Origin: Candidatus Saccharimonadota bacterium
GTDB taxonomy: Bacteria; Patescibacteriota; Gracilibacteria; UBA1369; 2-02-FULL-48-14
Length of the DNA stretch: 32,000 bases
Direction of reading: 5' to 3'
Assembly: GCA_041661045.1 (NCBI GenBank)
Contig: JBAZVE010000001.1
Span: 510,001-542,000 of the forward strand
Program-made: the position numbers and the translations under genes
Notes under the pieces: model-generated
What the model saw: only the letters and a program-made list of their open reading frames with translations
Told to the model about the DNA's origin: nothing
Database searches by the model: none
Part shown: one piece after another, positions 2,048-20,760 of the stretch
How the letters are laid out: each line of letters begins with the position of its first letter
Position numbering within the stretch: position 1 is the first letter of the stretch

Positions 2048-2593
2048 ATGAATACAGCAGAACAAAAAGAGTTTCTTGGGGCACTGAAGGCGCGTTTTGA
2101 AAAAAACATGAATCGGCATAAAGGTTTTGAGTGGGCTAAGGTGCAGGCCAGGCTGGAGGGTAATGGCGAAAAGGTGGGGGCGCTTTATGAAATGGAAAGA
2201 ACGGGTGGAGAGCCGGACCTTGTGGGTCAGGATGAAAAAACGGGAGAATATCTTTTTTATGATTGCAGCGAGGAAAGCCCAAAAGAGCGGAGAAGTGTTT
2301 GTTATGATCGCGAAGCTTTGGATGGAAGGAAGGAACACAAGCCGGCAAACAGTGCCATGGATATGGCGGGGGAGATGGGCGTTGAGCTCTTATCTGAGGA
2401 GGAGTACCGAGGGTTGCAGGAACTTGGAGATTTTGATTTAAAAACATCAAGCTGGATTAAAACACCTGCGGCCGTCCGGAAACTGGGCGGGGCGCTCTTT
2501 TGTGATCGTCGCTACGACAAAGTTTTTGTGTACCACAATGGTGCGGAGTCCTATTATGCCGCCAGGGGATTCCGTGGGGTGGCGAGAGTTTAG
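2048..2593 (+). CDS. DUF4256 domain-containing protein
   Basis: Full-length resemblance to the DUF4256 family as I recall it: ARFEKNMNRHKGFEWAKVQ, ERTGGEPD, FYDCSEESPKERRSVCYD, GGALFCDRRYDKVFVYHNGAESYYAARGFRG. Confidence 0.75.
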   Translation: MNTAEQKEFLGALKARFEKNMNRHKGFEWAKVQARLEGNGEKVGALYEMERTGGEPDLVGQDEKTGEYLFYDCSEESPKERRSVCYDREALDGRKEHKPANSAMDMAGEMGVELLSEEEYRGLQELGDFDLKTSSWIKTPAAVRKLGGALFCDRRYDKVFVYHNGAESYYAARGFRGVARV

Positions 2594-3132
2594 CGGGAAC
2601 GCCTCTGACACGCCTTCGAGTCTTCCAGGATGAGGGTGAAAACCGTTTCAACGAGGGGGAGGGGCAGGTTTAGGGGTACTGCGGTTCTGGCATGTAAGGA
2701 TTTGAGCTCTGCTTCACGAGTGGAGTCGCAGACCGAAAGACCGAGAACTGCTTTTACTGCGCCGATTCGGTTGATGCAATTCAGGCGTTGAGCCAGCAGG
2801 GCAATGAGACTGAAGCTTGCGTCCTCGATCATTTTTTGACGGATCTCTGTGGTGCTGGGCTCAGGAACTTCCTCGACAGATTCTTTTGCAAGAAGCGCAA
2901 AGAGCCCTTCAACGAGGGGGAGGGGCACGCCTAAGGCAGCAGCATTTCTGGCGCGCAAGGGGCTGAGCCTGGCCTCCAGGACCTTCATCTCGTTTCTGTA
3001 GCTGTGGAGCTGAGCCAAGTGTGCGAGGAGGCTCTCATCCACCGCTTCAATTTCCCCCCGCAGCTCGTCTATGCGAGCGAGGTTGGGAGGAGTATCGGGT
3101 TCATATGTGTCGGTATGGGAGTCGAGGCTCAT
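2590..3132 (-). CDS. tandem (duplicated) AroQ/type II chorismate mutase-like protein
   Basis: Two CM_2-like halves. The C-terminal half carries equivalents of the EcCM catalytic residues: IRQK, AQRLN, GAVK, CDSTRE, LEDSKACQ. The N-terminal half is degenerate but keeps the ELRGEIEAVDESLL helix. Confidence 0.6.
   Translation of the reverse strand: MSLDSHTDTYEPDTPPNLARIDELRGEIEAVDESLLAHLAQLHSYRNEMKVLEARLSPLRARNAAALGVPLPLVEGLFALLAKESVEEVPEPSTTEIRQKMIEDASFSLIALLAQRLNCINRIGAVKAVLGLSVCDSTREAELKSLHARTAVPLNLPLPLVETVFTLILEDSKACQRRSR
2647..2666. repeat. copy 1 of a perfect 20-nt intragenic direct repeat (ttcaacgagggggaggggca)
   Basis: Identical 20-mer at 2908-2927, 261 nt (87 codons) away. It encodes PLPLVE on the minus strand in both halves of the CM-like protein. 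Confidence 0.9.
2908..2927. repeat. copy 2 of the perfect 20-nt intragenic direct repeat
   Basis: Identical to 2647-2666. Confidence 0.9.
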
Positions 3133-3248
3133 TTGGGGGAAGGGTTTAGGTGCGAATTATACAACACTTCATTTAGATAGCAAGAGATTGAATTCGAGTC
3201 TGTGCCTTTACAGAGAGGTGATTTTTCATTAAAACGGGTCTGCTTCGT

Positions 3249-3255
3249 TAAAAAT
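3249..3255 (+). promoter_or_regulatory. candidate -10 box (TAAAAAT) of the U32 gene, leaderless-type spacing
   Basis: The A/T box ends 6 nt before ATG 3262. No SD motif in between. Confidence 0.25.
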
Positions 3256-3261
3256 AGATTT

Positions 3262-4509
3262 ATGCAAAAAATTGAAATCATGGCCCCGGTGGGTTCCTTT
3301 GAAGCGCTTTCGGCTGCGATAAATGCCGGCTGCGACAGTATTTATTTTGGCGTGGAGCAGCTCAATATGCGGGCGAGAGCGGCCCATAATTTCACCTTGG
3401 AAGAACTTAAGGAGGTGGTGAAGCTTTGTGAGGAGAGTGGGGTTCGGTCCTACCTCACCATGAATACGCTTTTGTATCAGCATGACCTTGTTTTGATGCG
3501 TAAAATTTTGGATGCGGCAAAGGCGGCGGGGATTTCCGCGGTTATTGTTCAAGACATCGCGGCCATTCAGTACGCACGATCCATTGGACTTTCCTTGCAT
3601 GCCTCCACGCAACTTTCCATTTCCAATTACGAAGCGGTGAAGTTTTATGCGCAGTTTGCGGACACCCTTGTTTTGGCACGAGAAGTGGATATGGAAATGA
3701 TGAGAGAAATCTGTAAAAAGATTGAAGAGGAATGGCTTAAAGGTCCGGGTGGAGCCTTGGTTCGTATTGAAGTGTTTGTGCATGGGGCACTTTGCATTGC
3801 CCAAAGTGGACGCTGCCAGATGAGTTTGATCACCAATAATACTTCTGCGCAACGAGGCGCGTGTTTGCAAGAATGCCGGAAAAAGTACCGGGTGACGGAC
3901 GAGGAGACCGGCACGGAAATGGTGATTGAAGATGGATTTGTGCTCAGCCCAACGGACCTCTGTTGCCTTCCTTTTTTGGATAAACTGGCGGAGACAGGGG
4001 TGTCTGTTTTTAAGATTGAAGGGCGGGGAAAAAGCGCGGATTATGTGAGCAAGGTGGTGCAGGTGTACCGTGAAGCGCGAGATGCGATTTTGGAAGGGAC
4101 TTTCACAAAAGAAAGGATTGAAGCATGGATGACGGAACTCAAAAGTGTATACAACCGCGGGTTCTCCGAAGGGTATTATTTGGGCCGAAAACTCCCCGAG
4201 TGGAGCGGATCTTCCGGCAGCAAGGCCACGGATGAAAAAATCTATGCGGGAGAGGTGAGCCACTATTTTGCAAAAGCAAAAATTGCGGAGCTGAACTTGC
4301 TCGCCCATGAACTGAAAAAAGGAGATGAATTTGTGGTTATTGGAAAAACAACGGGAGCGGTTTTTGGTCGGGTGGAGTCCATGATGAAGGATGGGGCGGA
4401 GGTGGAGGAGTGTGGTAGACAGGGTTTGGCGACCATCCCTTTGGTCGAAACGGTGCGAAAGAACGACAAGATTTATCTTCTAAAAAAACGAGCGCTCAAT
4501 GCCCTTTAA
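3262..4509 (+). CDS. peptidase U32 family protein (TrhP/RlhA-like Fe-S hydroxylase family)
   Basis: MQKIEIMAPVGSFEALSAAINAGCDSIYFG N-terminus. U32 signature EVFVHGALCIAQSGRCQMS plus RGACLQECR cysteines, and a C-terminal U32 beta-barrel-like segment. The track ORF start at 3202 is an upstream extension. Confidence 0.85.
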   Translation: MQKIEIMAPVGSFEALSAAINAGCDSIYFGVEQLNMRARAAHNFTLEELKEVVKLCEESGVRSYLTMNTLLYQHDLVLMRKILDAAKAAGISAVIVQDIAAIQYARSIGLSLHASTQLSISNYEAVKFYAQFADTLVLAREVDMEMMREICKKIEEEWLKGPGGALVRIEVFVHGALCIAQSGRCQMSLITNNTSAQRGACLQECRKKYRVTDEETGTEMVIEDGFVLSPTDLCCLPFLDKLAETGVSVFKIEGRGKSADYVSKVVQVYREARDAILEGTFTKERIEAWMTELKSVYNRGFSEGYYLGRKLPEWSGSSGSKATDEKIYAGEVSHYFAKAKIAELNLLAHELKKGDEFVVIGKTTGAVFGRVESMMKDGAEVEECGRQGLATIPLVETVRKNDKIYLLKKRALNAL

Positions 4510-4726
4510 GATTGTCCATTTCCAGAACGACTGCATTGGATGCAACTCTTGTGTGAATATTGCACCCCAGTCTTGGATGATGGACGAAAAAGAGGGGAAG
4601 GCGGTGCTGGTGGGAGGAAAAAAGAAGAAGGCTGTTTTTGTGGCTGAAGTTTTTGATTGTGACTTGGAGGCCAATGAGCGAGCGGCGGAGGCGTGCCCGA
4701 TGCGAATCATTCAGATCAATCGCTAG
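4499..4726 (+). CDS. small single-cluster ferredoxin
   Basis: 75 aa with CIGCNSC ... ACP (CxxCxxC...CP). The start overlaps the last 11 nt of the U32 gene. Confidence 0.75.
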   Translation: MPFKIVHFQNDCIGCNSCVNIAPQSWMMDEKEGKAVLVGGKKKKAVFVAEVFDCDLEANERAAEACPMRIIQINR

Positions 4727-4729
4727 GGT

Positions 4730-6154
4730 TTAACGGAGCTTGAGCGTTTTTGTGATGCCCACCTTTTTGATGAAATATTGGTCGTGGGAAATGAGCACCA
4801 TGGCGATTTCTTGATCCAAAAGAAAGCGTTCCAAATCTTCACGCAGGAAAATATCGAGGTGGTTGGTGGGCTCATCCAAAAGAAGAAGGTCGGGCTTATT
4901 GGTGAGCAGAATGGCGAACTCCAGACGGCGTTGTTGGCCGTAACTCAGGGTTTTAATTTTGCTGTCCACAAGTTCCGCCGGGAAAAGAAAATTGGCGAGA
5001 ACGCTACGGCCGGAAGTGTATTCAATGTGCGTGTTGGCTCCAAATTCGTCGAGCACGGTTTTGTTGGGGTCGAGCTTTGAAAACTGCCCCAAGTGACCAA
5101 TTTTGAGGTTGGCGCGGAGCTTGAGGGTGCCGTCAAAATCTCCATCCGTTCCACTTAAAATGCCAAGCAAAGTGCTTTTGCCGGAGCCGTTGGGGCCTTC
5201 GATGAGCACGCGGTCGCCCTGCTCCACTTTGAGCACGGTGTCTTTTAAAAGTTCGTGGTCCCCAAAGTGTTTGCTGTTGACGCGGAGGTTTAAAACCAAG
5301 CCCTCTTGTCCAGCCACCAAGGATTTCATTTTGACGCGGGGGTCGGGGACGGGAGCGGGTGGGGCTTTTTTCTCCATCCGTTCCAGGGCTTTCTTTTTTT
5401 GAGCCACCGTGGCGGTGAATTTGTATTTGGGGTGGTTCGCATTTTCCGCGAGCCAGGCCTCGAGCTCATTGACTTCTCGCTGACTGAACTCATGCAGTTG
5501 GAGTCGTTTTTGGTAGCGTTCAAATCGTTCCACCAAAAATCGGTCGTAGGTTCCGCTGTACACTTCCACTCCATGCTCCGCGGTGATCTCCCAAATTTGG
5601 TCCGCCACGGCGTTGATGAAACTGCGATCGTGCGAGACAAAGGCCACCGTTCCACGAAAAGCGTTCACAAAAGTTTTGAGCCACTCGATGCTCGCGTGAT
5701 CCAGGTGATTGGTGGGTTCATCCAAAAGAAGGATGGTGGGTTCCAGGAGTAGAAGCTCCGCGAGCGCGATGCGCACGCGTTGGCCCCCGCTCAGGCTTTT
5801 GAGGGGCTGAAGGAGAATTTCTTGCGCAAGGCCCACTTCTTCCAGGACCATGTCGATTTGATACGACATCCATTCTTCTTCCAATTTGCTTTCCAAATAA
5901 GTGCCCACCAGCTCCTCTTCGTTTGGGAAAAGGATGTCCTGCTTGAGGTAAGCAATGACTTCCTGAGATCGATTGACGCTCCCTTGCTCCGGCTCCAACT
6001 CTCCCGTGAGGAGCTTGAGGAGGGTGGACTTTCCACAACCGTTTTTCCCCACAATGGCCACGCGTTTTTTGGAAACTCCGTCCAAAGACACGCTGATTCC
6101 CTCGAAAAGGGGGCCGGCAGAAGTTTCGTAAGAGAGGTCTTTGGTGACGAGCAT
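4730..6154 (-). CDS. ABC-F family ATPase (two ABC cassettes, no membrane domain)
   Basis: Walker A GKNGCGKST and GPNGSGKST. Signatures LSGGQ and LSYGQ. LLLDEPTNHLD appears twice. Charged inter-domain linker. Confidence 0.85.
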   Translation of the reverse strand: MLVTKDLSYETSAGPLFEGISVSLDGVSKKRVAIVGKNGCGKSTLLKLLTGELEPEQGSVNRSQEVIAYLKQDILFPNEEELVGTYLESKLEEEWMSYQIDMVLEEVGLAQEILLQPLKSLSGGQRVRIALAELLLLEPTILLLDEPTNHLDHASIEWLKTFVNAFRGTVAFVSHDRSFINAVADQIWEITAEHGVEVYSGTYDRFLVERFERYQKRLQLHEFSQREVNELEAWLAENANHPKYKFTATVAQKKKALERMEKKAPPAPVPDPRVKMKSLVAGQEGLVLNLRVNSKHFGDHELLKDTVLKVEQGDRVLIEGPNGSGKSTLLGILSGTDGDFDGTLKLRANLKIGHLGQFSKLDPNKTVLDEFGANTHIEYTSGRSVLANFLFPAELVDSKIKTLSYGQQRRLEFAILLTNKPDLLLLDEPTNHLDIFLREDLERFLLDQEIAMVLISHDQYFIKKVGITKTLKLR

Positions 6155-6217
6155 ATTTTCTTATAGATTTTATTTTGGGATTTAGGGTAAAATCCCCGAG
6201 GTCTTAACCATTATACC

Positions 6218-6874
6218 ATGTCTGAAACGCAAGAAATCCGTTTGGCCGATGGGGCTTTTAAAAAGCTCATTTTGGCGCTCAGTATTTACCTTACTTCTTT
6301 GTTTGCTGCAAATACATTGGGCCTCAAAGTGATGCCTTTTTTGTTTGGAGGGCACCTTTCCGTGAGCGTGTTTTCGTTCCCCATTGTATTCTTGATGACG
6401 GATCTTATTGGAGAAGTGTATGGTAAAAAAGTAGCGCGGTCTTTTGTTTTGGCAGGGTTTGTGAGCACCGCACTTTTTGTGGCGTACTCCCTGCTCTCCC
6501 TTTGGATGCCGTGGTCTGATGACGGCCTTTGGGCAAGGGAAGGATATGAACTCATGTTCGGGGTCTCCACTCGAATTGCCGTGGCCTCTTTAGCCGCCTT
6601 TTTGATCGCGGAATACCAGGATGTATTCTCCTTTTTCTTTCTTAAAGAACGGTTTGGGAAGAAGTTGTTTTGGCTTCGATCTATGCTTTCCAACTTATGG
6701 TCTCAACTTTTGGACACCGTTATTTTTATGTTCATCGCCTTCTACGGAATTTATGAGCTCAAGATGATGATTAGTCTTATTGTGACATGGTGGCTTTATA
6801 AGGTTGCAATGGGGGCCCTCTATTCACCGCTTTTATATGTGGGGTTGCGACTTTTGAGGGGGAAGAAGGCGTAG
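6218..6874 (+). CDS. yhhQ: queuosine precursor transporter, YhhQ/VUT (DUF165) family
   Basis: Multi-TM protein with FSFPIVFLMTDLIGEVYGKK, RIAVASLAAFLIAEYQDV and LLDTVIFMFIAF motifs, as in E. coli YhhQ. Confidence 0.85.
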   Translation: MSETQEIRLADGAFKKLILALSIYLTSLFAANTLGLKVMPFLFGGHLSVSVFSFPIVFLMTDLIGEVYGKKVARSFVLAGFVSTALFVAYSLLSLWMPWSDDGLWAREGYELMFGVSTRIAVASLAAFLIAEYQDVFSFFFLKERFGKKLFWLRSMLSNLWSQLLDTVIFMFIAFYGIYELKMMISLIVTWWLYKVAMGALYSPLLYVGLRLLRGKKA

Positions 6875-6949
6875 GCTGGCAAAATTTGTAAAAAAATGTA
6901 CCTAAAATATAGATTTTGCTTGCAATGTCTGTATTTTAAGGTTACTTTG

Positions 6950-6958
6950 TGATAAAAT
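6950..6958 (+). promoter_or_regulatory. candidate extended -10 promoter (TGaTAAAAT) of ddl
   Basis: TG at 6950-6951 and TAAAAT at 6953-6958, 16 nt upstream of ATG 6975, in an AT-rich 100-nt intergenic region. Confidence 0.3.
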
Positions 6959-6974
6959 TTTACTGTAAAAATAT

Positions 6975-9338
6975 ATGAAAATTGCACTGATTTGTGGGGG
7001 GCCTTCGCTCGAAAGAGGAATTTCTCTCAACTCCGCGCGGAGTGTGCTCAACCACCTTGAGGGAGATGGAGTAGAAATCGTCCCTGTTTATTTTGACCAC
7101 AAAAAACGAGCCTATCATTTGTCGCCGGCGCAATTGTATTCCAACACGCCCTCCGACTTTGATTTTAAATTAGGGGAAACAGCCAAATTTTTGAGCGCCA
7201 CTGCCCTGAAAAATCTTTTAAAATCCTGTGATTTGGCCTTTCCTGTGATGCATGGACAGTTTGGGGAGGATGGTGGAATTCAGCGAATTTTGGAGCGATT
7301 CAAGGTTCCTTTTGTGGGCGCGGGACTCCAGGCGTGTAAACTGTGGGACAAATTTGAGGCCAATGGCTTTTTGAGGAAAAATGGATTTTTTACGCTGCCC
7401 TCGGCCTTGCTTAAAATTCATCACACGGATCACAAGAAAATTATTGAGGAGTTTTTTAGGAAAAATAAAATAAAGCGAGCGGTGGTGAAACCCGCGAGCG
7501 GGGGCTCCAGCATTGGGGTTTACTCGGTGAGCAGCCCGGAGGAAGCCCTGGAGAAGGCTAAATTGCTTTTTGGGCGAAGGATGGACACGCGGCTTGTTTT
7601 GGAGCCTTTTTGTGAGGGGACGGAATTTACGGTGATTATTTTGGAAAATCGATTCAATATGCCGGTGGCCATTTTGCCCACGGAAATTGAGACGGATTAC
7701 ACGAAGAATCAGATTTTTGATTTTCGGAAAAAGTACCTGCCCACGCACCAGGTTCGATACCACTGTCCACCACGATTTGATAACGAGACCATTGAGCGCA
7801 TTCAACTTCAAGCGGAACAGATTTTTAAGATCATGGGACATCGTGACTTTGCTCGTTTCGATGGGTGGCTGCTTCCGGACGGGAAAATCTGGTTTTCCGA
7901 TTTCAATACCATCAGTGGAATGGAGCAAAATAGTTTTCTTTTCCAACAAACGGCCCGCATTGGATTCAGTCACAGAGATCTTTTGTACAGCATTGTGCAG
8001 CATGCCGCGGATCGTTACGGCTTGACGATGCCGCCCAAAAAAGTTTCCGCTGCGGTGCAAAAGAAACCGGTGAATGTCCTTTTTGGGGGCAGCACTTCCG
8101 AGCGGCAGGTGTCTTTGATGAGTGGGACAAATGCATGGCTTAAACTACGGCGCAGCGAAAAATATACCCCCAGGCCTTATCTCTTGGATCTCAATGGAGA
8201 GGTGTGGGAGATCCCTTATGCCTTCGCGCTCAACCACACGGTGGAAGAGATTTTAGAGAATTGCGAGAAAGCGGAGGAAGGGGAAAAACGGCTCCGATTT
8301 TTGGAGGAAAAAGTGAGGCTTCGTTTAGCGCTTAGAGAGGGGGAGGCCAGCGAGCCCTTCTTCATCCCGCGAAAAATGAGCTTACAGAAATTTATTGAGC
8401 AGAGTTCATTTGTGTTTTTGGGCCTTCATGGTGGAATTGGAGAGAACGGGACACTTCAAGCGATGCTTGCGGACAGCGGAGTGAAATTCAATGGACCCAG
8501 CGCGGAAACTTCCAGGGTGTGCGCGGATAAGGCTGAAACGGGACACCGGCTCATGGGCCTGGAGAAGTCTGGGATTTTTGTGGCGCCCAAGCAAACCGCT
8601 CTTTCAAGTGGTTTTGACGGATGGGATGATAAAGATTTTGAAAAATACTTCACGGAACTCCAAAAGAATCTTGGCTCTAAAACGCTCATTGTTAAGCCTC
8701 GTGATGAGGGGTGCTCTTCCGGCATTGTGCGCCTCTTCACTTGGCATGATTTGCAGCAGTACATCCACTTCGTTTTGAGTGGAGAAACCCAAATTCCCGC
8801 CGGGTCTTTTAGTAAACAAAAGGACCCTATTGAAATGCCTCTGCAGCCCATTGCGCACCTCCTTTTTGAAAAATTTATTGAAACCGACACGGTTCGGGTA
8901 AAAGGGAATCGTCTCAAATGGCACCGTAAAGGGGGGTGGATTGAAGTGACGGTTGGGGTGCTTCAAATGGAGGGTAAAATTCATGCGCTCAGCCCCAGCC
9001 TTACCATTGCGGAAGGGGAGGTGCTTTCGGTGGAAGAAAAATTTCAAGGAGGGACGGGAATCAATCTCACCCCGCCTCCGGAGAAATATGTGAAGCCTGC
9101 TGTTTTGGCTCGAGTTAAAAAATCCATAGAAAAAGTGGCCCAAGTTTTAAAAATCGAAGGGTACTCTCGGATCGATGCCTTTATTCAAGTAGACACCGGG
9201 GACCTGATTTTGATTGAAGTGAATACGCTTCCCGGGCTTACTCCTTCCACGGTGCTCTTTCACCAAGGCATTGCGGAAAGCCCATCGGTTTATCCTCTGG
9301 AACTTTTGGAGAAATTCGTGGAGAATAAGGGCTATTAA
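6975..9338 (+). CDS. ddl: tandem-fused D-alanine--D-alanine ligase family protein (two ATP-grasp units in one 787-aa chain)
   Basis: Unit 1: MKIALICGGPSLERGISL, HGQFGEDGGIQ, KPASGGSSIG, FDFRKKYLP, ARFDG..DFNTISGM. Unit 2: VNVLFGGSTSERQVSL, HGGIGENGTLQ, KPRDEGCSSG, SRIDAF..EVNTLPGLTPSTV. Confidence 0.8.
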   Translation: MKIALICGGPSLERGISLNSARSVLNHLEGDGVEIVPVYFDHKKRAYHLSPAQLYSNTPSDFDFKLGETAKFLSATALKNLLKSCDLAFPVMHGQFGEDGGIQRILERFKVPFVGAGLQACKLWDKFEANGFLRKNGFFTLPSALLKIHHTDHKKIIEEFFRKNKIKRAVVKPASGGSSIGVYSVSSPEEALEKAKLLFGRRMDTRLVLEPFCEGTEFTVIILENRFNMPVAILPTEIETDYTKNQIFDFRKKYLPTHQVRYHCPPRFDNETIERIQLQAEQIFKIMGHRDFARFDGWLLPDGKIWFSDFNTISGMEQNSFLFQQTARIGFSHRDLLYSIVQHAADRYGLTMPPKKVSAAVQKKPVNVLFGGSTSERQVSLMSGTNAWLKLRRSEKYTPRPYLLDLNGEVWEIPYAFALNHTVEEILENCEKAEEGEKRLRFLEEKVRLRLALREGEASEPFFIPRKMSLQKFIEQSSFVFLGLHGGIGENGTLQAMLADSGVKFNGPSAETSRVCADKAETGHRLMGLEKSGIFVAPKQTALSSGFDGWDDKDFEKYFTELQKNLGSKTLIVKPRDEGCSSGIVRLFTWHDLQQYIHFVLSGETQIPAGSFSKQKDPIEMPLQPIAHLLFEKFIETDTVRVKGNRLKWHRKGGWIEVTVGVLQMEGKIHALSPSLTIAEGEVLSVEEKFQGGTGINLTPPPEKYVKPAVLARVKKSIEKVAQVLKIEGYSRIDAFIQVDTGDLILIEVNTLPGLTPSTVLFHQGIAESPSVYPLELLEKFVENKGY

Positions 9339-9357
9339 ATTGGCGCGAGCCGTACTT

Positions 9358-9762
9358 ATGGGTGATTTCCCCGTTCCGCTGAAGCAGAAATTTCTTGAAA
9401 AGGCCGAGAGGCTGCGGATTTTCCCTGAAGATATTGAGGAGAAATTTGTGAGAGGAAGCGGCAGCGGAGGACAAAAAATGAATAAAACCGCCAGTACGGT
9501 TTGGCTCAAACATTTACCCACCGCAATGGAAGTGAAAGTTCAGGATCAGAGGGAGCGGGAGGCTAATCGCATGGCGGCGTACAGGGTTTTGATCCTAAAA
9601 ATTGAAGAAAAGATACTGGGGAAGAAATCCGAGTTGATGCAAAAAGCTTTTAAGCTGCGCAAGCAAAAAAAACGCCGAAGCCGCAAGGCGAAAGAAAAAG
9701 TTTTGGATGAAAAAAAGCACCGAGGCGAGCTCAAAGAAAATCGCCGAACCCCTCAATTTTAA
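9358..9762 (+). CDS. arfB: ArfB-like GGQ-domain peptidyl-tRNA hydrolase (RF-1 domain protein)
   Basis: VRGSGSGGQKMNKTAS GGQ motif followed by a Lys/Arg-rich C-terminal tail. 134 aa from ATG 9358. The track ORF start at 9271 overlaps ddl and is an extension. Confidence 0.65.
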   Translation: MGDFPVPLKQKFLEKAERLRIFPEDIEEKFVRGSGSGGQKMNKTASTVWLKHLPTAMEVKVQDQREREANRMAAYRVLILKIEEKILGKKSELMQKAFKLRKQKKRRSRKAKEKVLDEKKHRGELKENRRTPQF

Positions 9763-9780
9763 TAAATCTCCTTCCGTTGA

Positions 9781-10491
9781 ATGATGTACGAAAAAGCTTT
9801 TTATTTAACCGGTAAGCGAGGGAACAATGTGTTTTCTTATGAAGACCGCGGGGAGGCGCCGCAACTTTTTATACCCGCCATTGTGGAAGGATCTTTGGAG
9901 GATATTCGGGAGGGTACAGAAGTTGTTTTTTCCGATCGGGATGAGTACGGGGTTTTGCAGAATTGTGTTGGACTTTTGCACTTTGTGAGGACTTCTTTTA
10001 ATGGGATCCCCGTTATTGTTGTGGACAATCACAATCATGTTTTTTACTTTTGGCATGAGGCGCGGGCCCGTGGGTTTTTACGAGAGGGCGCGACACTGAT
10101 TCATATTGATCAACACAAGGATGCGCGAGATCCCGGTGTGCCTTTTACGGGAGCAAGCCTTGAGGAAGTTTTTGCCTACACGAACGAAGTTTTGAATGTG
10201 GGCAATTATATTGTGCCGGCGCAGCGGGGTGGGCTTGTGGGGGAGGTGCAGTTTGTGACCAGCGAACAAGCGCTTGAGGATGAGTCCTTTTGTGCTCGAG
10301 ATAACAAAATCCTCAATATCGATCTCGATTTTTTTGCGCCGGAAATGAATTACATCGATTTTCAAAAGGCCCGGCGCTTTATTTTGAAGCACGCCCAAAA
10401 TGCTTCACTCATCACGGTGGCCACCAGTCCCTTTTTTATTGAGCAGAAGCGGGCACTAGAGATATTGACAACCCTATTAAGAGTTGTATAA
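9781..10491 (+). CDS. UPF0489 family protein (C5orf22-like), function unknown
   Basis: VVDNHNHVFYFWHEA and LIHIDQHKD motifs, as I recall them for UPF0489. Not verified by search. Confidence 0.5.
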   Translation: MMYEKAFYLTGKRGNNVFSYEDRGEAPQLFIPAIVEGSLEDIREGTEVVFSDRDEYGVLQNCVGLLHFVRTSFNGIPVIVVDNHNHVFYFWHEARARGFLREGATLIHIDQHKDARDPGVPFTGASLEEVFAYTNEVLNVGNYIVPAQRGGLVGEVQFVTSEQALEDESFCARDNKILNIDLDFFAPEMNYIDFQKARRFILKHAQNASLITVATSPFFIEQKRALEILTTLLRVV

Positions 10492-10499
10492 TTTCTTCT

Positions 10500-11390
10500 A
10501 TGTCACACTCTTTAGAGTCCGGTGAGGCTCGAGTAGAAGAAGAACTTAGTCCTACGCGCTTAGATCCTGCCGCGTGGACTCGTGTGGCGGACGAGGTGAA
10601 CTTAGCCTGTAAGGACTTGGTGCTTGATCCTTTTATTCCTTTAAATGTTCGTACAAGCCTTTCTGAATTGCAGGCGTCTTTGAGCATGATGATGCCGGGT
10701 GGAGACTTGAGCTTCGCCGACCAAGCAGTTTTTGAATTTTTGGCAGCCACTTTTCGGCCGGATCCGGTGGTGGTGAAAAGAAGATCTCGTCTTGATTTGG
10801 CACGACGCATCCATGATGTTCGAAACCTTACTATTGTACTTTTAAGCCTCTTGGAACGGCCAAATCCTACCGGTACAGATTTGGAGCATTCGCGGGTTAT
10901 TGTCCAGAAAATTTTAAGTGTTTTGGACGGTCAAGAGGGGGCTCCCGCCGCACTCTTTATGCACTTTGAAGAATTGTCACAGATCTTTGATGACATGCAT
11001 TTGCGGTACGGGGATCCCACGAAGATCCCTTTTTATTTCACGGGGAAGGAGATTCCGCTCAGCACCATGAACCTCAGCAGACTTCTCATCAACCTTATTG
11101 ATAATGCTAAGAAGGCAGGAGCTACTGAGGTTCAGTTTAGCTTTGATGTTGAAGGGAACAGCCTTGTCATCCACCTGCTCGACAATGGACCCGGGTTTCC
11201 TGCCGAGCCTTTTGCCAGTAGGCCCAATGCAGCGACGGGGCATGGGTATGGCCTTGATGAGTGCAAGACGCTTTGTGAAAAGGCCGGAGGAAGCCTGAGC
11301 CGTGGGTCGCTTAGGGGAGAGTCCGGGTGGACAGCTGGGGCGGAGTGGACTATTCGGCTTCCTTTGAATGAGGCAAGAGACCCGCAGTGA
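10500..11390 (+). CDS. soluble histidine-kinase-like protein (HisKA-like H box + HATPase_c), no membrane or known sensor domain
   Basis: H box ARRIHDVRNLT. N box LLINLIDNAKKAGA. G1 DNGPGF. G2 GHGYGL. H-to-N spacing is about 100 aa. Confidence 0.7.
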   Translation: MSHSLESGEARVEEELSPTRLDPAAWTRVADEVNLACKDLVLDPFIPLNVRTSLSELQASLSMMMPGGDLSFADQAVFEFLAATFRPDPVVVKRRSRLDLARRIHDVRNLTIVLLSLLERPNPTGTDLEHSRVIVQKILSVLDGQEGAPAALFMHFEELSQIFDDMHLRYGDPTKIPFYFTGKEIPLSTMNLSRLLINLIDNAKKAGATEVQFSFDVEGNSLVIHLLDNGPGFPAEPFASRPNAATGHGYGLDECKTLCEKAGGSLSRGSLRGESGWTAGAEWTIRLPLNEARDPQ

Positions 11391-12570
11391 TCCAAAAAGG
11401 AGCCATGAAAAGGGGGAAGAGGAGACTGTTTACAAAAATGGCGTGGATGAAGAGGCCGCAGAGACCGGCCAGGAAGCCCGCGGCGAAGCCGGATTTTTTG
11501 TGAACCCAGGCTTGTTTGGCGAGGAGGAGATAGGCCGCCAGAAAAGGAATGAAGCCGAGGAGTCCGGTGGTGGCCAAAATGTTGAGTAGACTGGAATCGG
11601 AACCGCTGGCGGAGTGAATTTCAAGATCTTTGAGCGTTCCCAGTTCCAGAGCGGCGTGTTTGTATCGATTGTAGCCATGCCCAATCCAGGGCTCCTTCAA
11701 AAAGAGTTGCCAGGCCTCTCCCCAAGAATCATAACGAAGTCGGGCGGAGGCGTCGGGGAGAAAATAATCTTCCACAAAGGCGGACTCGATGCTTTCCACA
11801 AGGCTCAAAAATCGAGATTGAACGGGGGGTAAAAAACTTAGGGTCACAAGAAGAATGGCCATAAAAACAAAGAGCAATTTGATGGAGCGAAGCAGTCCAA
11901 AAACAAAAAGTCCCGCCATGAGCGCCAGGTAGGCGCTGCGAGAAAGGGTGAGTACAAGAGCCAGAAGCATCACGAGAGCCAGGGCGGCGAGCACGGCGCG
12001 GTGTTTTTTAGCATCCCAGGCCACCCCCACCACAATGGGGAGCATGAAAGCCAGGAAGCCGCCCACGAAGTTGGGGTCAAACCAAGTGGAGAGCAGGCGG
12101 TTTTGGTGTGGGTCCCAGCCCAAGAGCTCCATGGTGGTGAAATCCGGCATGATTTTGAGTTGGATGAAGCCCGCCACGCACAAAAGGAAAATGAAAAAGA
12201 GCAGGGCGAGGAGGGAGTGTTTTTTTTCAGCCGCACTTTGATTCCAAACGACCACGGAAAGTAAAAAGAAGGCCGCGAAACGGACCCCGTAAAAAGTGGA
12301 TTCCAGCACTTCTTGCCCGGACATGTCGCCGGAATGAAGGAGCAGGGAAGCGAATCCAAAGAAGAGAAAGATAAGAACGGGGAGGGCCGTTTTGGGAAGG
12401 CGAATGGGGCGCTTTTGTATGGCTTGGATTGTGGTCCAGGTGAGAACAAACAGCGGGACGAAGAGGTCGATCCATAAAAACCCGTGGAAGCGACTCAGTT
12501 CACCCACCAAAGAGAGGAGGAGGGCAAGTCCAATGCCAATGGAACCGAAAGGGAAGGCTTTTTTAATCAT
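11350..12570 (-). CDS. O-antigen ligase (Wzy_C) family membrane protein
   Basis: 406 aa, about 10-12 hydrophobic segments, and an LTLSRSAYLALMAGLFVFGLL segment typical of the Wzy_C region. Confidence 0.7.
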   Translation of the reverse strand: MIKKAFPFGSIGIGLALLLSLVGELSRFHGFLWIDLFVPLFVLTWTTIQAIQKRPIRLPKTALPVLIFLFFGFASLLLHSGDMSGQEVLESTFYGVRFAAFFLLSVVVWNQSAAEKKHSLLALLFFIFLLCVAGFIQLKIMPDFTTMELLGWDPHQNRLLSTWFDPNFVGGFLAFMLPIVVGVAWDAKKHRAVLAALALVMLLALVLTLSRSAYLALMAGLFVFGLLRSIKLLFVFMAILLVTLSFLPPVQSRFLSLVESIESAFVEDYFLPDASARLRYDSWGEAWQLFLKEPWIGHGYNRYKHAALELGTLKDLEIHSASGSDSSLLNILATTGLLGFIPFLAAYLLLAKQAWVHKKSGFAAGFLAGLCGLFIHAIFVNSLLFPLFMAPFWITAGLLPHSKEAE

Positions 12571-12613
12571 TGGGGATATTGTACATTATACCAGGCCTTT
12601 TCAACTCGATTTT

Positions 12614-13201
12614 ATGAAGCTGCTTGTCGCCACAAAAAATCCAGGAAAATTTGAGGAAATTCGAGAAATGTTGCTTCCACTTGGTGCCGAGCTTTTGTCT
12701 TTGGCGGAAGTGGGGATTAGTGACGATTTTTTTGAGGGCGGGGATGGCTTTGAAGAAAATGCACTTGGAAAGGCGAGGTTTTATTTTGAGAAATCCGGGA
12801 TACCCGCCGTGGCCGACGACAGTGGTATTTTTGTGGAAGCGCTTGAAAGTGAGCTTGGGGTAAAGACGCGTCGATGGGGGGCGGGAGAACGAGCGAGTGA
12901 TGAAGAGTGGCTCGAACAATTTTTAAAGCGAATGGAGTCGGAAGAAAATCGGAACGCCGAATTTGTGTGCGCGGCGGCTTATGCCGGGCCCGAAGGGGAG
13001 CGAGTTTTTGTGGGGGACACAAAGGGAACCCTTGCAATGGCACCACAAGTTCCGGTTCGCCAGGGGATACCGCTCTCTTCGATTTTTTACCCCGAAGGAT
13101 ACCGTAAAGTGTATGCGGAACTTTCTTTGGACGAAAAAAATGCGGTGAGTCACCGCGGAAAAGCCTTTAACAAACTGCTCTCATGCTTGAAGATGTTTTG
13201 A
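12614..13201 (+). CDS. rdgB: RdgB/HAM1 non-canonical purine NTP pyrophosphatase
   Basis: MKLLVATKNPGKFEEI, VADDSGIFVEAL and SHRGKA motifs. The track ORF (12392) has a 74-codon upstream extension overlapping the neighbouring gene. Confidence 0.85.
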   Translation: MKLLVATKNPGKFEEIREMLLPLGAELLSLAEVGISDDFFEGGDGFEENALGKARFYFEKSGIPAVADDSGIFVEALESELGVKTRRWGAGERASDEEWLEQFLKRMESEENRNAEFVCAAAYAGPEGERVFVGDTKGTLAMAPQVPVRQGIPLSSIFYPEGYRKVYAELSLDEKNAVSHRGKAFNKLLSCLKMF

Positions 13202-13743
13202 AAAGAATAGAGACCGAAAATGAGGCGCAAGACCAATGGATTGTTGGCCCTGCCACCGGGAAAATGCTGCACTGGTTGGTGCGCGTTTTGGAGCCGGAAG
13301 TGGTGCTTGAAATTGGTACTTCGGTTGGATACAGCGCCCTATGGATGGCCTCCGCTCTCGAGAAAAATCAAAGGGGGCAGCTGTGGACCATTGAGTCTCA
13401 TGAGGAACGGTTCCACACGGCTCAAAGAAATATTGAAGCGGCGGGATTGGAGCACCGCATTTTGCAATTGAGGGGACATGCTCCGGAGATTTTTACGGAA
13501 AACCCCATCCTGCCAAAGCGCATCGACCTTGCTTTTTTTGATGCCACCAAGCAGGAGCACCAGTCTTATTTTGATGCTATTTTTCCACGCATCCCTTCAG
13601 GTGGCATGATTGTGGTGGACAATGTTCGGTCTCATCGTTTTGGAAAAATGCAGAGCTTTATTGAGGCCACGCACAAACATGCCGGACTCAAAGTGGTTGA
13701 GATTCCGGTGGGAGATGGGCTGCTTATTGCCCGCGTCGTTTAG
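13183..13743 (+). CDS. class I SAM-dependent O-methyltransferase, family 3 (TrmR/YrrM- and CCoAOMT-like)
   Basis: VLEIGTSVGYSALWMA, LWTIESHEE, IDLAFFDATKQEHQSYFD and GGMIVVDNV match the Methyltransf_3 layout. Confidence 0.8.
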   Translation: MLEDVLKRIETENEAQDQWIVGPATGKMLHWLVRVLEPEVVLEIGTSVGYSALWMASALEKNQRGQLWTIESHEERFHTAQRNIEAAGLEHRILQLRGHAPEIFTENPILPKRIDLAFFDATKQEHQSYFDAIFPRIPSGGMIVVDNVRSHRFGKMQSFIEATHKHAGLKVVEIPVGDGLLIARVV

Positions 13744-16498
13744 GAAGAATGCTGTCTAAAATATTTGTACTGTTGTCGCTGGGCTCAGCGGAGTTGCCGG
13801 AGTTATTGGAGTCCTCACCGTCGTCGCTCACTCGCAATTGAATGGTGCTTTCTGAAGAGTATCCATACTGATCCACCGCTTTTGCGGTGATTTCCAAAAC
13901 GCTGCCCGACCGGGAGGTGATGGGGATCACGATGATTCCGTCGTAAGGATATTCCAGAGAGGTGTAGCGAAGATCCTCGTTGACAAAATACTCTACGCGG
14001 TCGATGCCATTTCCCTCATCTAAAATTTCTACGGTGACATCGTGGAGTCGATCTTCTCTGGAAACAGAAGAGAGGCTTTGAGGGCTTGTGATGGCCAATT
14101 CAGGGACATTGGAGGCGGTCTCTGCGTTGTGAATATCGGAAGCGTATTCGGTGGGGGGCTGAGAATCTTCCTCCTGAGTTTTGGCCCAGGCATCAATATC
14201 GTCCTGCCAATTTCCCCAGGCCTCACGATGGATGCGATAACTTCGTTCTTCCACGGCATCTTCGGGGGAATATTCCGTGGCAAGCCGCTTTGTGATGGTT
14301 TCCACTTTAACGGTGACGAAGGCATCATCCACTTGGGTGGGAACCGCAAAGTCCGCAAAAATTTCTGTACCCACCATGTCGGGTGGAGTGCTTTCTCCCG
14401 CCAGTTTTCCGCTCGCCTTGCTCACCGCTATTTCACGAATTCCACTGGGGCGTTGCCATTCCGTGGGCTCCAGACGATTCAAAACTTTGCCCATGTAACT
14501 TTTCCAAATGGGGGCAATGGTGCTGTAGGACTCTCCATTGGAATTGAGGGCGCTTCCGTCGGCATTCCCGGCCCACCCAATGGTGACGAGCGTTGGGGTG
14601 TACGCGGCGATCCAGTTGTTGTTGGGCAGATTAGTGTTGGGTACATTGGAGGTCCCTGTTTTTGCCGCATTGTCGATGGCGGGGAGGTAAATGTTGGCGC
14701 CCAAGCCCGCGCTTGAGTCTGAGAGAATATCATTGATGATGTAGGCCACCTGGGGGTCCACGACTTTGGTTTTTTCTACTTTAGCTTCGTCCCATTGGTC
14801 CAGCACTTTTCCATCCGTGGTTTCTATTTTTAAGATGGAGCTCAGTTCGGTGTGGGTGCCATTGTTTGCAAAAACACTGTACGCCTCCGCCATTTCCAGC
14901 GGCGTTACTTCCGCAGTTCCCAGTGCCAAACTTGGGCCGGAGGGATATTCCGGATCGTAAACCAGACTGTCGAGGCCGAATTTTTTAGCATATTCTTTGA
15001 TGGCCTTCTCCTCTCCCGCAAGGAAGTAGGCTTTGATGGCGGGGATATTTCTGGATTGGCCGAGGGCGTAACGCATGGTCATTGGACCTTTGAAACCACC
15101 ATCAAAGTTATTAGGACTCCAGTTTCCAAAATTAGTTTTGACATCATAAAATACGGTGGCGGCCGTGTATTGGTTGAGCAGAGCCAGCGAGTACACGAAG
15201 GGCTTGAAGGAAGACCCCGGTTGACGAGCGCTGGTGACCATGTTCACTTGGCCATCTATTTCGGAATTTGTGAAGTCCACGGAGCCCACCATGGCAAGAA
15301 TTTGTCCGGTTTGAGGTTGCACCGAGACCAGTGCGGCGTTGCTCGCTCCATAAGTGTCCAGCAGCGTGTCTTTGCGTTCTTCGATGGCTTCTTCCGCAGC
15401 TTTTTGGAAGTCGGGATCGAGCGTGGTGTAGACGCGTAAACCTCCTTGTTCCACCACATCCGCCCCATAGGTCTCTTCCAATTCTTGTTTCACCCACAGC
15501 ACAAAGTGCTCGGCGGTATCGAGTTCGTTGTAATTTTTGAACTCAATACTTGCGATTTCTACCAGTGCGGCGTCGGCTTCTGACTGCGCAATCATGTCCA
15601 GTTCCACCATTCTTTCCAGCACCAAGTCCGATCGGCCTCTTATATAAAAGGTGCTTCCGTCCGGCATGGTGAACGCCGTCCCCAAAAGACCTCGAGTGAA
15701 TTCGTCCAAGCCCAAGTCCTCTTCACTCTTAATGACTCGTCCGTTCAAACTTTCTTCCGTGAGCTCAAAGGCCAAGACGGAATATTTGTAGTTTCCATAA
15801 GGGGAGTAACGCGTGGGCTTGTTCGGGATTCCCGCCAAAATAGCGGACTCTCCTAAAGTGAGTTCACTGGCATCTTTTTCAAAATAGCGCTTGGAAGCAA
15901 GTTCAATTCCGTAGGCGTTGTTTCCGTATGGAATTTCATTGAGATACATCAAAAGGATCTCATTTTTGCTGAATTTTACTTCCATCACCAAGGCGATGAG
16001 AATTTCACGGTATTTACGAATGTAGCTGTGCTCCAAATTGAGCATGGCGTTTCTTGCCAACTGTTGAGTGATGGTGGAACCTCCTCTTGGGGTGCCTATG
16101 CCAAATTGTGAAAGAACTGCTTTGAAAAGAGCGGGGACATCAATCCCAATGTGTTTGTAAAATTTATCGTCTTCAATGGCCAGTGTGGCATCGATCAAGT
16201 AAGGAGAAATCTCTTCAAGAGTTTTGAGGGACTCACGGTTTTCTTCACCGTGAATGGTGTAGAGGAGATTCCCCTCGCGATCCATGATTTGAGTGGAATC
16301 TTTAGCCTGTGCTTCACTAGGATTGAAGCTGATGAGGAGCCAAAAGGCGTAGACGAAGGTTAAAAAAGCGATGGACAGTCCTCCTCCGAGTATTCCAATC
16401 AACACAAAACGGAGACCGCGTTCTTTTTTAGACATGTGCGGGCGGGGTTTTAGCTTTTCCCAGCCGTCTCGAATGTGTTTTTTAGTCCAGGTTTTCAT
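13724..16498 (-). CDS. class A penicillin-binding protein (PBP1A family) with a C-terminal Ig-like extension
   Basis: N-terminal TM anchor. GT51 motifs EDDKFYKHIGID and GGSTITQQLARN. Transpeptidase motifs SSFK, SRN and KTGT. About 240 aa follow the transpeptidase domain. Confidence 0.9.
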   Translation of the reverse strand: MKTWTKKHIRDGWEKLKPRPHMSKKERGLRFVLIGILGGGLSIAFLTFVYAFWLLISFNPSEAQAKDSTQIMDREGNLLYTIHGEENRESLKTLEEISPYLIDATLAIEDDKFYKHIGIDVPALFKAVLSQFGIGTPRGGSTITQQLARNAMLNLEHSYIRKYREILIALVMEVKFSKNEILLMYLNEIPYGNNAYGIELASKRYFEKDASELTLGESAILAGIPNKPTRYSPYGNYKYSVLAFELTEESLNGRVIKSEEDLGLDEFTRGLLGTAFTMPDGSTFYIRGRSDLVLERMVELDMIAQSEADAALVEIASIEFKNYNELDTAEHFVLWVKQELEETYGADVVEQGGLRVYTTLDPDFQKAAEEAIEERKDTLLDTYGASNAALVSVQPQTGQILAMVGSVDFTNSEIDGQVNMVTSARQPGSSFKPFVYSLALLNQYTAATVFYDVKTNFGNWSPNNFDGGFKGPMTMRYALGQSRNIPAIKAYFLAGEEKAIKEYAKKFGLDSLVYDPEYPSGPSLALGTAEVTPLEMAEAYSVFANNGTHTELSSILKIETTDGKVLDQWDEAKVEKTKVVDPQVAYIINDILSDSSAGLGANIYLPAIDNAAKTGTSNVPNTNLPNNNWIAAYTPTLVTIGWAGNADGSALNSNGESYSTIAPIWKSYMGKVLNRLEPTEWQRPSGIREIAVSKASGKLAGESTPPDMVGTEIFADFAVPTQVDDAFVTVKVETITKRLATEYSPEDAVEERSYRIHREAWGNWQDDIDAWAKTQEEDSQPPTEYASDIHNAETASNVPELAITSPQSLSSVSREDRLHDVTVEILDEGNGIDRVEYFVNEDLRYTSLEYPYDGIIVIPITSRSGSVLEITAKAVDQYGYSSESTIQLRVSDDGEDSNNSGNSAEPSDNSTNILDSILPKRRGQ

Positions 16499-19994: not shown

Positions 19995-20003
19995 AGGTGA
20001 ACT
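19995..20003. repeat. left copy of the 9-bp direct repeat AGGTGAACT bounding the low-GC islet
   Basis: Identical 9-mer at 23096-23104. It overlaps the vapC stop codon. Confidence 0.45.
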
Positions 20004-20439: not shown

Positions 20440-20671
20440 GTATGGATTTTAATAATTCTTCATCAGTCATTTTTTTGTGACGGTGAGTTTTTTTGAATGT
20501 ATCAATAAGCTCAAAAGCTTTTTCTCTGCTCAGGTCGATCATTTTTTCTTCCAAAAGAGTATTTACAAGACTACTCCTGTCACCTGAGGGCACGAGTGCC
20601 TCTAATTGCTCCAGAACACTTACATCGAGCATGAAGTTTACGCGTTTTCTTTGAGCTACTGCGGTGGGCAT
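20414..20671 (-). CDS. vapB: ribbon-helix-helix antitoxin (VapB-like)
   Basis: KRVNFMLDVSVLEQLEALVPSGDRSSLVNTLLEE gives a beta-strand/helix/helix pattern. ATG 20671 is preferred over GTG 20698, which lies upstream of the predicted promoter. Overlaps vapC by 26 nt. Confidence 0.65.
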   Translation of the reverse strand: MPTAVAQRKRVNFMLDVSVLEQLEALVPSGDRSSLVNTLLEEKMIDLSREKAFELIDTFKKTHRHKKMTDEELLKSIHEARKDLL

Positions 20672-20700
20672 ATGGTTTGGTGTAAGTTTATTACACACTC

Positions 20701-20729: not shown

Positions 20730-20760
20730 GGGCCACCCCTCGCCTTTCATGCCAAGCCTA

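Follow-up and report, generated by a model that had tools for sequence, protein, structure and literature searches.

Chorismate mutase, a U32-family protein and a small ferredoxin as a candidate unit for prephenate-dependent hydroxylation in the candidate phyla radiation

We analysed a 32,000-nucleotide (nt) stretch of contig JBAZVE010000001.1 (positions 510,001 to 542,000 of the forward strand) from a Candidatus Saccharimonadota bacterium (GCA_041661045.1), hereafter the window, in which three neighbouring genes at positions 2590-4726 encode a tandem AroQ chorismate mutase (CM)-like protein, a U32-family protein and a small ferredoxin. We think it probable, though well short of certain, that these three proteins constitute a working unit for O2-independent, prephenate-dependent hydroxylation. 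That the three belong together functionally, as an earlier sequence-only reading of the window had proposed, is supported by the invariable pairing of U32 and ferredoxin genes in relatives, by recurrent linkage of CM genes to this U32 clade and by a ferredoxin-CM fusion in one relative. The further proposals of that reading, namely that the unit is self-contained and that it acts on RNA, go beyond this support.

Prephenate-dependent hydroxylation by U32 proteins is itself already known; what is new here is the set of U32, CM and ferredoxin partner genes, together with the tandem CM. Only recently have prephenate-dependent U32 hydroxylases been recognised as a means of oxygen insertion that needs no O2, and for most U32 subfamilies no substrate is known. 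RlhA (PMC5727448) and TrhP (PMC6599085) have a genetic requirement for prephenate, while UbiU/UbiV take three oxygen atoms from the C4 hydroxyl of a shikimate-derived molecule, identified as prephenate by 18O (PMC10990095). The chemistry proposed for UbiU/UbiV frees phenylpyruvate, with electrons leaving via the Fe-S clusters to an acceptor described as "yet unidentified" (PMC10990095). Direct enzymatic evidence for U32 hydroxylases was lacking as of 2024 (review PMC11574389), and we found no newer literature that alters this. Full-text literature searches, whose coverage is incomplete such that a prior description is possible, returned no account of a U32-CM-ferredoxin unit, in agreement with the reading's suggestion that this arrangement had not been described, nor any of a ferredoxin-CM fusion or of aro operons that contain U32 genes.

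The three proteins

The open reading frames (ORFs) of the window confirmed the gene coordinates, the divergent spacing and the gene overlap on which the three-gene proposal had been built. The CM-like ORF (2590-3132, minus strand, 180 amino acids (aa)) is transcribed divergently from the U32 ORF (3262-4509, plus strand, 415 aa), with exactly 129 nt between the two start codons (3133-3261, GC content 37%), and the ATG at 3262 (MQKIEIMAPVG...) is the conserved U32 start. The ferredoxin ORF (4499-4726, plus strand, 75 aa) overlaps the end of the U32 ORF by 11 nt (4499-4509), which is consistent with translational coupling. The intergenic region carries back-to-back promoter-like sites, both of them consensus matches only: TTGCTA-16-TATAAT on the CM side (3183-3156, minus strand, 10/12 consensus match) and TTTACA-N17-TAAAAC on the U32 side (3207-3235, plus strand). 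Since the U32-side block is kept in the window and in four loci of relatives (L009, L008, L003 and L005) regardless of which gene lies upstream, the U32-ferredoxin pair appears to keep its own putative promoter.

The assignment of the 180-aa protein to the AroQ family, made previously from its residue pattern, held up by both family match and fold. CM_2 matched residues 108-176 at 46.4 bits (Pfam cut-off 27, E 4.8e-12), and BLASTP shows homology between the two halves of the protein (E 1e-8, 36% identity, with a 13-residue deletion in the N-terminal half), residues 1-90 (2863-3132, minus strand) constituting a degenerate AroQ repeat and residues 91-180 (2590-2862, minus strand) the predicted catalytic AroQ domain. 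Although phmmer of the protein against the PDB gave no match and a profile search was required, the best PDB match of an AroQ profile made from the C-terminal half and 34 AroQ homologues was the E. coli CM, EcCM (1ECM, E 1e-18), aligned without gaps at an offset of +2; the C-terminal half scores 98 bits on this profile.

In this register, R116, K127, D136, R139, E140, S172 and Q176 of the C-terminal half correspond to R28, K39, D48, R51, E52, S84 and Q88 of EcCM, and R116, K127, R139 and E140 fall in columns that are invariant across the 35-sequence AroQ alignment. The EcCM catalytic set had been placed entirely in the C-terminal half, which stands for these seven residues but not for Arg11: the arginine of the IRQK motif (R98) is one residue out of register, the Arg11 column of this half being occupied by Q99, and the true equivalent is R25 in the N-terminal half, where D32 also lies on the Asp18 column. 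In the N-terminal half, only residues 20-41 (profile positions 4-25) and 53-86 (positions 50-83) match the CM profile, and this half lacks a 24-position segment bearing the equivalents of Arg28, Lys39, Asp48 and Arg51. Thus, of the eight catalytic equivalents, the N-terminal half retains only Arg11 and the remaining seven are found only in the C-terminal half, with the EcCM set being complete once R25 is counted as a trans-acting Arg11'. The losses in the two halves are complementary in the alignment, which is the pattern expected if selection had kept exactly one composite AroQ active site and is unlike random decay. In AroQ dimers such as EcCM, Arg11 reaches into the active site of the partner subunit; given this and the complementary residue pattern, we predict that the protein is a pseudo-dimer within a single chain, with one active site composed from both halves.

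The structural model of the protein agrees with its AroQ assignment. AlphaFold2 with an alignment gave a predicted local distance difference test score (pLDDT) of 87 and a predicted template modelling score of 0.73, with five helices, the N-terminal half consisting of a single long helix (residues 18-67) and then a helix at 71-84; a poor model from the single sequence (pLDDT 57) was discarded in favour of this one. The best Foldseek matches in the PDB were again 1ECM chains (target-normalised template modelling (TM) score 0.84-0.85, root-mean-square deviation 0.7-1.4 Å, probability 1.00), which cover one half of the model, and the packing of the two halves against each other as a pseudo-dimer is predicted.

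Single-chain pseudo-dimeric AroQ forms are known among the secreted *MtCM/AroQ-gamma enzymes and in yeast CM, in which, as in the window CM, an internal duplication takes the place of a homodimer. The window protein shares the helical AroQ fold, seven catalytic residues in register and a trans arginine with the homodimeric EcCM, but its bundle has five helices rather than six, the N-terminal half having lost the 24-position segment. It does not match AroQ-gamma entries globally in structure (6cnz, TM ~0.2), and it differs from AroQ enzymes at large in adjoining a U32/ferredoxin pair instead of lying within an aro operon and in having no close sequence relative. Its gene gave no clear signal of horizontal transfer in GC content or in GC content at third codon positions. 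The tandem CM may be predicted to represent a new natural case in which AroQ subfunctionalisation has led to a one-chain enzyme with a single active site.

The U32 protein matched Peptidase_U32 at 226 bits (Pfam, E 3.8e-67), and is made up of a U32 TIM-barrel and a divergent U32_C beta-barrel. The two cysteine motifs singled out earlier proved to be a firm feature of the clade, with the four cysteines of the cluster-binding motif C178-X6-C185-X15-C201-X3-C205 (CX6CX15CX3C; 3793-3876, plus strand) being invariant in 174/174 aligned clade members; the equivalent four-cysteine [4Fe-4S] motif of UbiU/UbiV is found in most U32 proteins (PMC10990095). Peptidase_U32_C (PF16325) was matched by 27 of 40 clade members (best E 2e-7), whereas the window protein itself had no PF16325 match at E <= 1. 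DUF3656 was matched neither by the window protein nor by the 40 clade members. The window protein is 60-84% identical to many homologues from the candidate phyla radiation (CPR), to which the relatives recorded as Peribacteria, Peregrinibacteria and Gracilibacteria belong, and 46-53% identical to the non-CPR homologues recovered, which comprise ~35 Bacteroidia (46-52%), two Methanosarcinales-labelled metagenome-assembled genomes (MAGs) and a few others.

Among characterised enzymes, the window U32 protein resembles TrhP (YegQ in E. coli; TrhP1/TrhP2, or YrrO/YrrN, in B. subtilis), the known prephenate-dependent tRNA U34 hydroxylase (PMC6599085), with which the clade shares its U32 plus U32_C architecture and conserved cysteines. 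TrhP (NF011996) is its top NCBIfam match, although the 172.7 bits fall short of the cut-off of 534, and the window protein shares 25% identity (114 bits) with the E. coli enzyme and 33% with a Tenericute yrrO-type protein. Only one U32 gene is present in the window, with no second U32 paralogue adjoining as in the yrrMNO-type arrangement of TrhP1/TrhP2 and TrmR, and no adjacent TrmR, CmoA or CmoB. Moreover, E. coli and B. subtilis encode neither CM nor ferredoxin with the hydroxylase, whereas both adjoin it in the window and the two are fused to each other in locus L063. UbiU was the second NCBIfam match (NF047963, 159.6 bits against a cut-off of 440; 28% identity to the E. coli protein), and UbiV scored 48.1 bits (NF047965, cut-off 275); these too are U32 proteins with the four-cysteine [4Fe-4S] motif; the window, however, has one U32 gene instead of a U/V pair and no UbiT/SCP2 partner, and the clade carries U32_C. 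RlhA (YdcP), the 23S rRNA C2501 hydroxylase, scored highest of the E. coli paralogues in pairwise BLAST of the U32 domain (30% identity, 142 bits) and is likewise prephenate-dependent, but it is defined by DUF3656, which is unique to its subfamily (PMC5727448), and is 653 aa long compared to 415 aa for the window protein. In length and in U32 plus U32_C architecture, the window protein is like P. gingivalis PrtC (PepU32#4) and H. pylori HP0169 (PepU32#2), and sources label its homologues "collagenase" or "putative protease". PrtC and HP0169 differ in having been described as peptidases, with no known link to Fe-S clusters, prephenate or ferredoxin; of the 12 U32 subfamilies recognised, those containing PrtC and HP0169 (~410-420 aa) have no assigned hydroxylation substrate (PMC5727448). 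The window U32 protein gave no match by phmmer against the PDB.

For the 75-aa protein, the ferredoxin assignment was upheld: it matched Fer4_15 (37.6 bits) and Fer4_13 (36.3 bits), both over the Pfam cut-offs, and the CxxCxxC...CP pattern noted earlier corresponds to cysteine ligands, read from the sequence, at C12-x2-C15-x2-C18...C66-P67, as in single-[4Fe-4S]-type ferredoxins. Lauhon reportedly found in 2019 that TrhP-dependent hydroxylation in E. coli needs the ferredoxin YfhL. YfhL is a 2x[4Fe-4S] protein, whereas the window ferredoxin is of the single-cluster Fer4_13/15 type.

Linkage of ferredoxin and chorismate mutase to U32 across relatives

We compared the U32 neighbourhood in 18 lineages of the CPR-type clade (the window, L009, L008, L003/L052, L005, L006, L010-L014 and L062-L068) and in ~42 non-CPR loci. 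An orthologous single-cluster ferredoxin gene lies directly 3' of the U32 gene in 18/18 of these lineages (mostly CPR), in most cases overlapping it or a few nt away. Outside the CPR, a ferredoxin gene was next to U32 in one Cytophagaceae and one Verrucomicrobiales locus, while no ferredoxin adjoined U32 in the Bacteroidia loci, where U32 is surrounded by housekeeping genes of no evident relation to it (GH32, DXS, TonB, RRF), which offer no functional hint. The adjacency and overlap in all 18 lineages make the ferredoxin a candidate redox partner of the U32 protein. In L064 (10001-14550, plus strand), the U32-ferredoxin pair is followed on the same strand by genes for an asparaginyl-/aspartyl-tRNA synthetase (AsnRS/AspRS), a membrane FAD/NAD flavoprotein resembling ferric reductases and a protein with a cytochrome b5 domain, an arrangement in which the ferredoxin may have a candidate electron sink. 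A SUF operon for Fe-S assembly (4333-8531, minus strand) lies just upstream of U32-ferredoxin in L068, on the opposite strand.

CM genes are linked to this U32 in at least five different architectures, of which the window, with its tandem CM divergent from U32, is one. In L009, L003/L052 and L008, whose U32 proteins are 81-86% identical to that of the window, a complete shikimate/Phe/Tyr operon is divergent from U32 in the position of the window CM, on the same side of U32 and on the same strand. Its order in L009/L003/L008 is 5-enolpyruvylshikimate 3-phosphate synthase (EPSPS)-shikimate kinase (SK)-3-dehydroquinate dehydratase (DHQase) II-shikimate dehydrogenase (SDH)-3-deoxy-D-arabino-heptulosonate 7-phosphate (DAHP) synthase (DAHPS)-3-dehydroquinate synthase (DHQS)-prephenate dehydratase (PDT)-prephenate dehydrogenase (PDH)::CM-aminotransferase, with chorismate synthase (CS) alongside. 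L005 (Peregrinibacteria) has a CM-CS-DHQS-DAHPS-SDH operon 1.5 kb downstream. In L015, a Methanosarcinales-labelled MAG, U32 lies within a complete aro/Phe/Tyr operon (3451-15146, plus strand) ordered DAHPS-DHQS-EPSPS-SK/DHQase/SDH-CS-CM-U32-aminotransferase-PDH-PDT, in which the CM stop and U32 start overlap by 4 nt. This operon includes a 664-aa SK-DHQase I-SDH triple fusion, and no ferredoxin gene adjoins its U32 gene.

In the fifth architecture, found in L063 (Gracilibacteria, U32 63% identical), a 179-aa ORF with a GTG start (11238-11777, plus strand) encodes a ferredoxin::CM fusion, with Fer4_13/15 at residues 5-72 and a complete AroQ domain at residues 97-176 (CM_2 74 bits), and overlaps the U32 stop by 11 nt, as the ferredoxin gene does in the window. 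No aro gene lies within 10 kb of it. The public gene call had shortened this ORF to a 152-aa "CM_2" protein. The fusion is lineage-specific, being confined to the P0064/P0060/P0066 lineage; conservation in the wider P0064 clade was considered and rejected, as L066 and L067 (75-80% U32 identity to L063) have plain ferredoxins, and long fusion-like alignments in L009 and L012 were read-through artefacts over ORFs that encode plain ferredoxins. The linked CMs of L063, L015 and L005 carry complete canonical catalytic sets, and a hidden Markov model scan of all ORFs of 66 loci, including the window, revealed no CM domains beyond those described here. By a simple positional null in which the syntenic L009 clade counts as one event, the chance probability of four independent CM linkages in 16 lineages is roughly 1e-4 to 4e-3, and the fusion is qualitatively stronger evidence than adjacency.

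The complete cluster of shikimate, PDT, PDH::CM and aminotransferase genes spans L009:707-9793 and L052:830-7582, in genomes recorded as "Candidatus Peribacteria" or "Candidatus Gracilibacteria", and retention of the shikimate/Phe/Tyr pathway in this CPR lineage is unusual. L060 (13182-14027, plus strand) has a prephenate-dehydratase::CM fusion (a 281-aa frame) in a Peribacteria-type aro operon, with no U32 gene in the locus.

The conservation predicted for the CM-U32-ferredoxin neighbourhood was thus found for the U32-ferredoxin pair and for CM linkage as such, but not for the arrangement of the window, in which the tandem CM divergent from U32 is unique to this genome. Several further observations weigh against a dedicated unit. 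U32-ferredoxin occurs without a CM or aro gene within 10 kb in 12/18 lineages, and ~40 non-CPR homologues (mainly Bacteroidia) have neither ferredoxin nor CM as a neighbour. In the closest relatives (L009/L003/L008) and in L015, the linked CM belongs to an ordinary, complete Phe/Tyr operon, and the linkage there may stem from prephenate being used in common and phenylpyruvate being recycled rather than from a dedicated mutase. Around the window CM itself, no aro gene was found from ~7 kb to the left of the gene to 29 kb to its right. A DAHP synthase from this contig was not found either, in a weak metagenome scan with only two N-terminal peptide patterns, which gave two loci, neither on this contig, or in DAHP synthase 90% clusters, which had no member from this contig, a weak result because an orthologue could be <90% identical. 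As for the proteins, the CM falls below all 21 NCBIfam CM equivalog cut-offs (best TIGR01791, 46.9 bits against 66.95) and is a singleton, with only itself below E 1e-8 among 1.84 billion (1.84e9) representatives and ordinary 90-aa AroQ proteins or PDH::CM fusions as its next-best matches. By its sequence the window U32 protein does not appear to be orthologous to any characterised enzyme, its identities being 25-30% and its scores under all NCBIfam equivalog cut-offs, and the Methyltransf_3 gene of the window, discussed below as a possible TrmR, is not recurrent near U32 in other CPR loci.

Alternatively, the mutase may be an ordinary Phe/Tyr biosynthetic CM whose proximity to U32 would be historical, the aro operon having ancestrally stood there and later been moved or broken up, with no dedicated coupling. 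In addition to the position and strand of the aro operon in the three closest species, the syntenic right flank of U32-ferredoxin-ABC-F, the place of the L015 CM in a complete Phe/Tyr operon and the many U32-ferredoxin lineages with no CM nearby all speak for this explanation. The contrast drawn in the sequence-only reading, which took the mutase to be kept beside an RNA-modification enzyme rather than next to Phe/Tyr biosynthesis genes, fails for the clade, as the closest relatives have U32-ferredoxin beside a complete Phe/Tyr operon and L015 has U32 inside one. However, the window CM is no closer to the PDH-CM domains of the relatives (34-36% identity) than to unrelated AroQ proteins (up to 44%, to a stand-alone CM), so that its origin as a remnant of their PDH::CM gene is unsupported. 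It has a tandem architecture of its own, and the left flank is not syntenic. Its low similarity to PDH::CM, together with the complementary decay of its halves, argues that it is maintained for function. Furthermore, a purely historical association cannot explain the L063 fusion, with no aro genes within 10 kb, or the repeated, differently arranged CM linkages. We therefore rate this explanation as rather unlikely, although it is compatible with a functional unit, as a single CM could act in both capacities.

Proposed reaction and substrate

In the reaction that we propose for the CM-U32-ferredoxin unit, the tandem AroQ protein, with R25 of its N-terminal half as trans arginine and the other seven residues from its C-terminal half, would convert chorismate to prephenate. 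The U32 [4Fe-4S] enzyme would use prephenate as the hydroxyl donor, hydroxylating its substrate and releasing phenylpyruvate and CO2, presumably by chemistry like that proposed for UbiU/UbiV. The two electrons from oxidation of the substrate would be taken off by the co-translated single-cluster ferredoxin.

The substrate is most likely an RNA base, either tRNA U34 or an rRNA pyrimidine. We favour RNA because the U32 plus U32_C architecture is TrhP-like, because Peribacteria are without most respiratory-chain components and amino-acid biosynthesis (PMC4736985), and because several loci put RNA-modification or translation genes in or beside the U32-ferredoxin unit. These include an RlmA-type (Zn-ribbon) rRNA methyltransferase gene 3' of U32-ferredoxin on the same strand in L065 (11512-12384, plus strand), an RlmI-like methyltransferase gene upstream and AsnRS/AspRS in L064, MiaA in L005 and ABC-F genes in several loci. 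A quinone substrate, as for UbiU/UbiV, would be unlikely in a lineage lacking most of the respiratory chain.

Instead of RNA, the unit might target prephenate itself or a small aromatic compound from the chorismate/prephenate branch. The U32 gene of L015 is embedded between CM and aminotransferase-PDH-PDT of one operon, the U32 genes of L009, L003, L008 and L005 border aro operons, and phenylpyruvate released as a by-product would feed the adjacent aminotransferase (by extension from PMC10990095); in addition, no substrate has been assigned to this U32 subfamily, which lies equally far from RNA- and quinone-hydroxylating enzymes. An aromatic target nonetheless seems unlikely to us, given that most family members, among them those of ~40 non-CPR loci (mainly Bacteroidia) and of 12 CPR lineages, have no aro genes in their vicinity, that the domain architecture matches TrhP/TrhP1 (PMC6599085), that RNA-modification and translation genes stand in or beside the U32-ferredoxin unit at several loci, and that the known U32 enzymes use prephenate as co-substrate and not as target (PMC10990095).

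It is more improbable still that the 180-aa protein is an AroQ-fold protein other than a mutase, such as an isochorismate-pyruvate-lyase-like enzyme, a chorismate- or prephenate-binding regulator or a decaying duplicate. Its score below the NCBIfam CM cut-offs, its lack of a close homologue, the absence of an in-register Arg11 from its C-terminal half and the loss of most catalytic residues from its N-terminal half would all be compatible with this, as would the occurrence among the profile matches of PchB-type lyases, which share the fold. Yet the losses are exactly complementary and leave one full catalytic set, the ORF is intact, with a promoter-like site and a confident helical-bundle model, EcCM is the top match by sequence profile and by structure, and the other U32-linked CMs (L063, L015 and L005) have complete canonical catalytic sets. 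Finally, despite the "collagenase" and "putative protease" annotations of homologues, which go with the old PrtC/HP0169 reports, we regard it as very improbable that the U32 protein is a peptidase of collagenase type, secreted or cytoplasmic, with unrelated neighbours, in view of its invariant four-cysteine Fe-S motif, its ferredoxin partner in 18/18 lineages, the ferredoxin::CM fusion, the lack of any known peptidase catalytic mechanism for the U32 family (PMC5727448) and the fact that all genetically characterised U32 members are hydroxylases (PMC10990095, PMC6599085, PMC5727448, PMC11574389).

Surrounding genes and significance

The remainder of the window has a housekeeping character, with genes for an ABC-F protein, a YhhQ-type transporter, a double Ddl, PBP1, PheST, TopA and PGM. 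Pfam and ORF annotation revealed no shikimate-pathway genes elsewhere in the window, 4.4 kb added leftward was without aro genes, and an Rfam scan of the window gave no match. A DUF4256 gene (2048-2593, plus strand) is convergent with the CM gene, the two 3' ends sharing 4 nt; a second DUF4256 gene lies 5.5 kb from U32 in L065 (16783-17625), which may be coincidence. On the other side, a gene for an ABC-F ATPase of the translation-factor family (4730-6154, minus strand) is convergent with the ferredoxin gene. The ABC-F neighbour recurs in L001/L009 and L003/L004, and ABC-type ATPases are found 0.6-7 kb from U32-ferredoxin in L064-L067.

A 186-aa family-3 O-methyltransferase (Methyltransf_3; 13183-13743, plus strand) is encoded 9 kb from U32, and its top PDB matches include B. 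subtilis YrrM/TrmR (5zw3) and a tRNA ho5U methyltransferase (8k1f). Its identification as TrmR was rejected, since YrrM was only the third-best PDB match and there was no NCBIfam TrmR-type match. Further along, a 787-aa protein (6975-9338, plus strand) is a tandem of two D-Ala-D-Ala ligase modules, each complete (Dala_Dala_lig_N and _C twice each), and a 946-aa ORF immediately 3' of topA (26359-29199, plus strand) has no Pfam match. A patch of low GC content (0.40-0.42 compared to ~0.50) at 20000-24000 holds PIN, DUF1048 and DUF1697 genes, the DUF1697 gene at 0.35, together with unannotated ORFs, and may by its composition be an acquired island.

A more far-reaching form of the CM-U32-ferredoxin proposal, which we advance tentatively and consider on balance doubtful, is that the three proteins form a physical complex (ferredoxin and CM being covalently joined in L063) in which unstable prephenate would be made where it is used, that the ferredoxin would be the long-sought acceptor of U32 hydroxylases, and that the shikimate pathway or a lone mutase would be retained in CPR bacteria at least partly for prephenate as an oxygen source. 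If this were true, a large "collagenase-like" U32 subfamily would gain a hydroxylase function.

Taken together, the locus and its relatives provide independent, genome-encoded evidence, in the form of gene fusion, translational coupling and recurrent linkage, for a U32 protein working with CM and a specific small ferredoxin. They also offer a minimal three-protein system (two-protein in L063) from small genomes that could be used for the in vitro reconstitution that the field lacks. Candidatus Peribacter riflensis and other Peribacteria are without most amino-acid biosynthesis and most respiratory-chain components (PMC4736985), and the proposed use of prephenate suggests a possible reason for keeping the shikimate pathway in organisms whose amino acids are otherwise imported.

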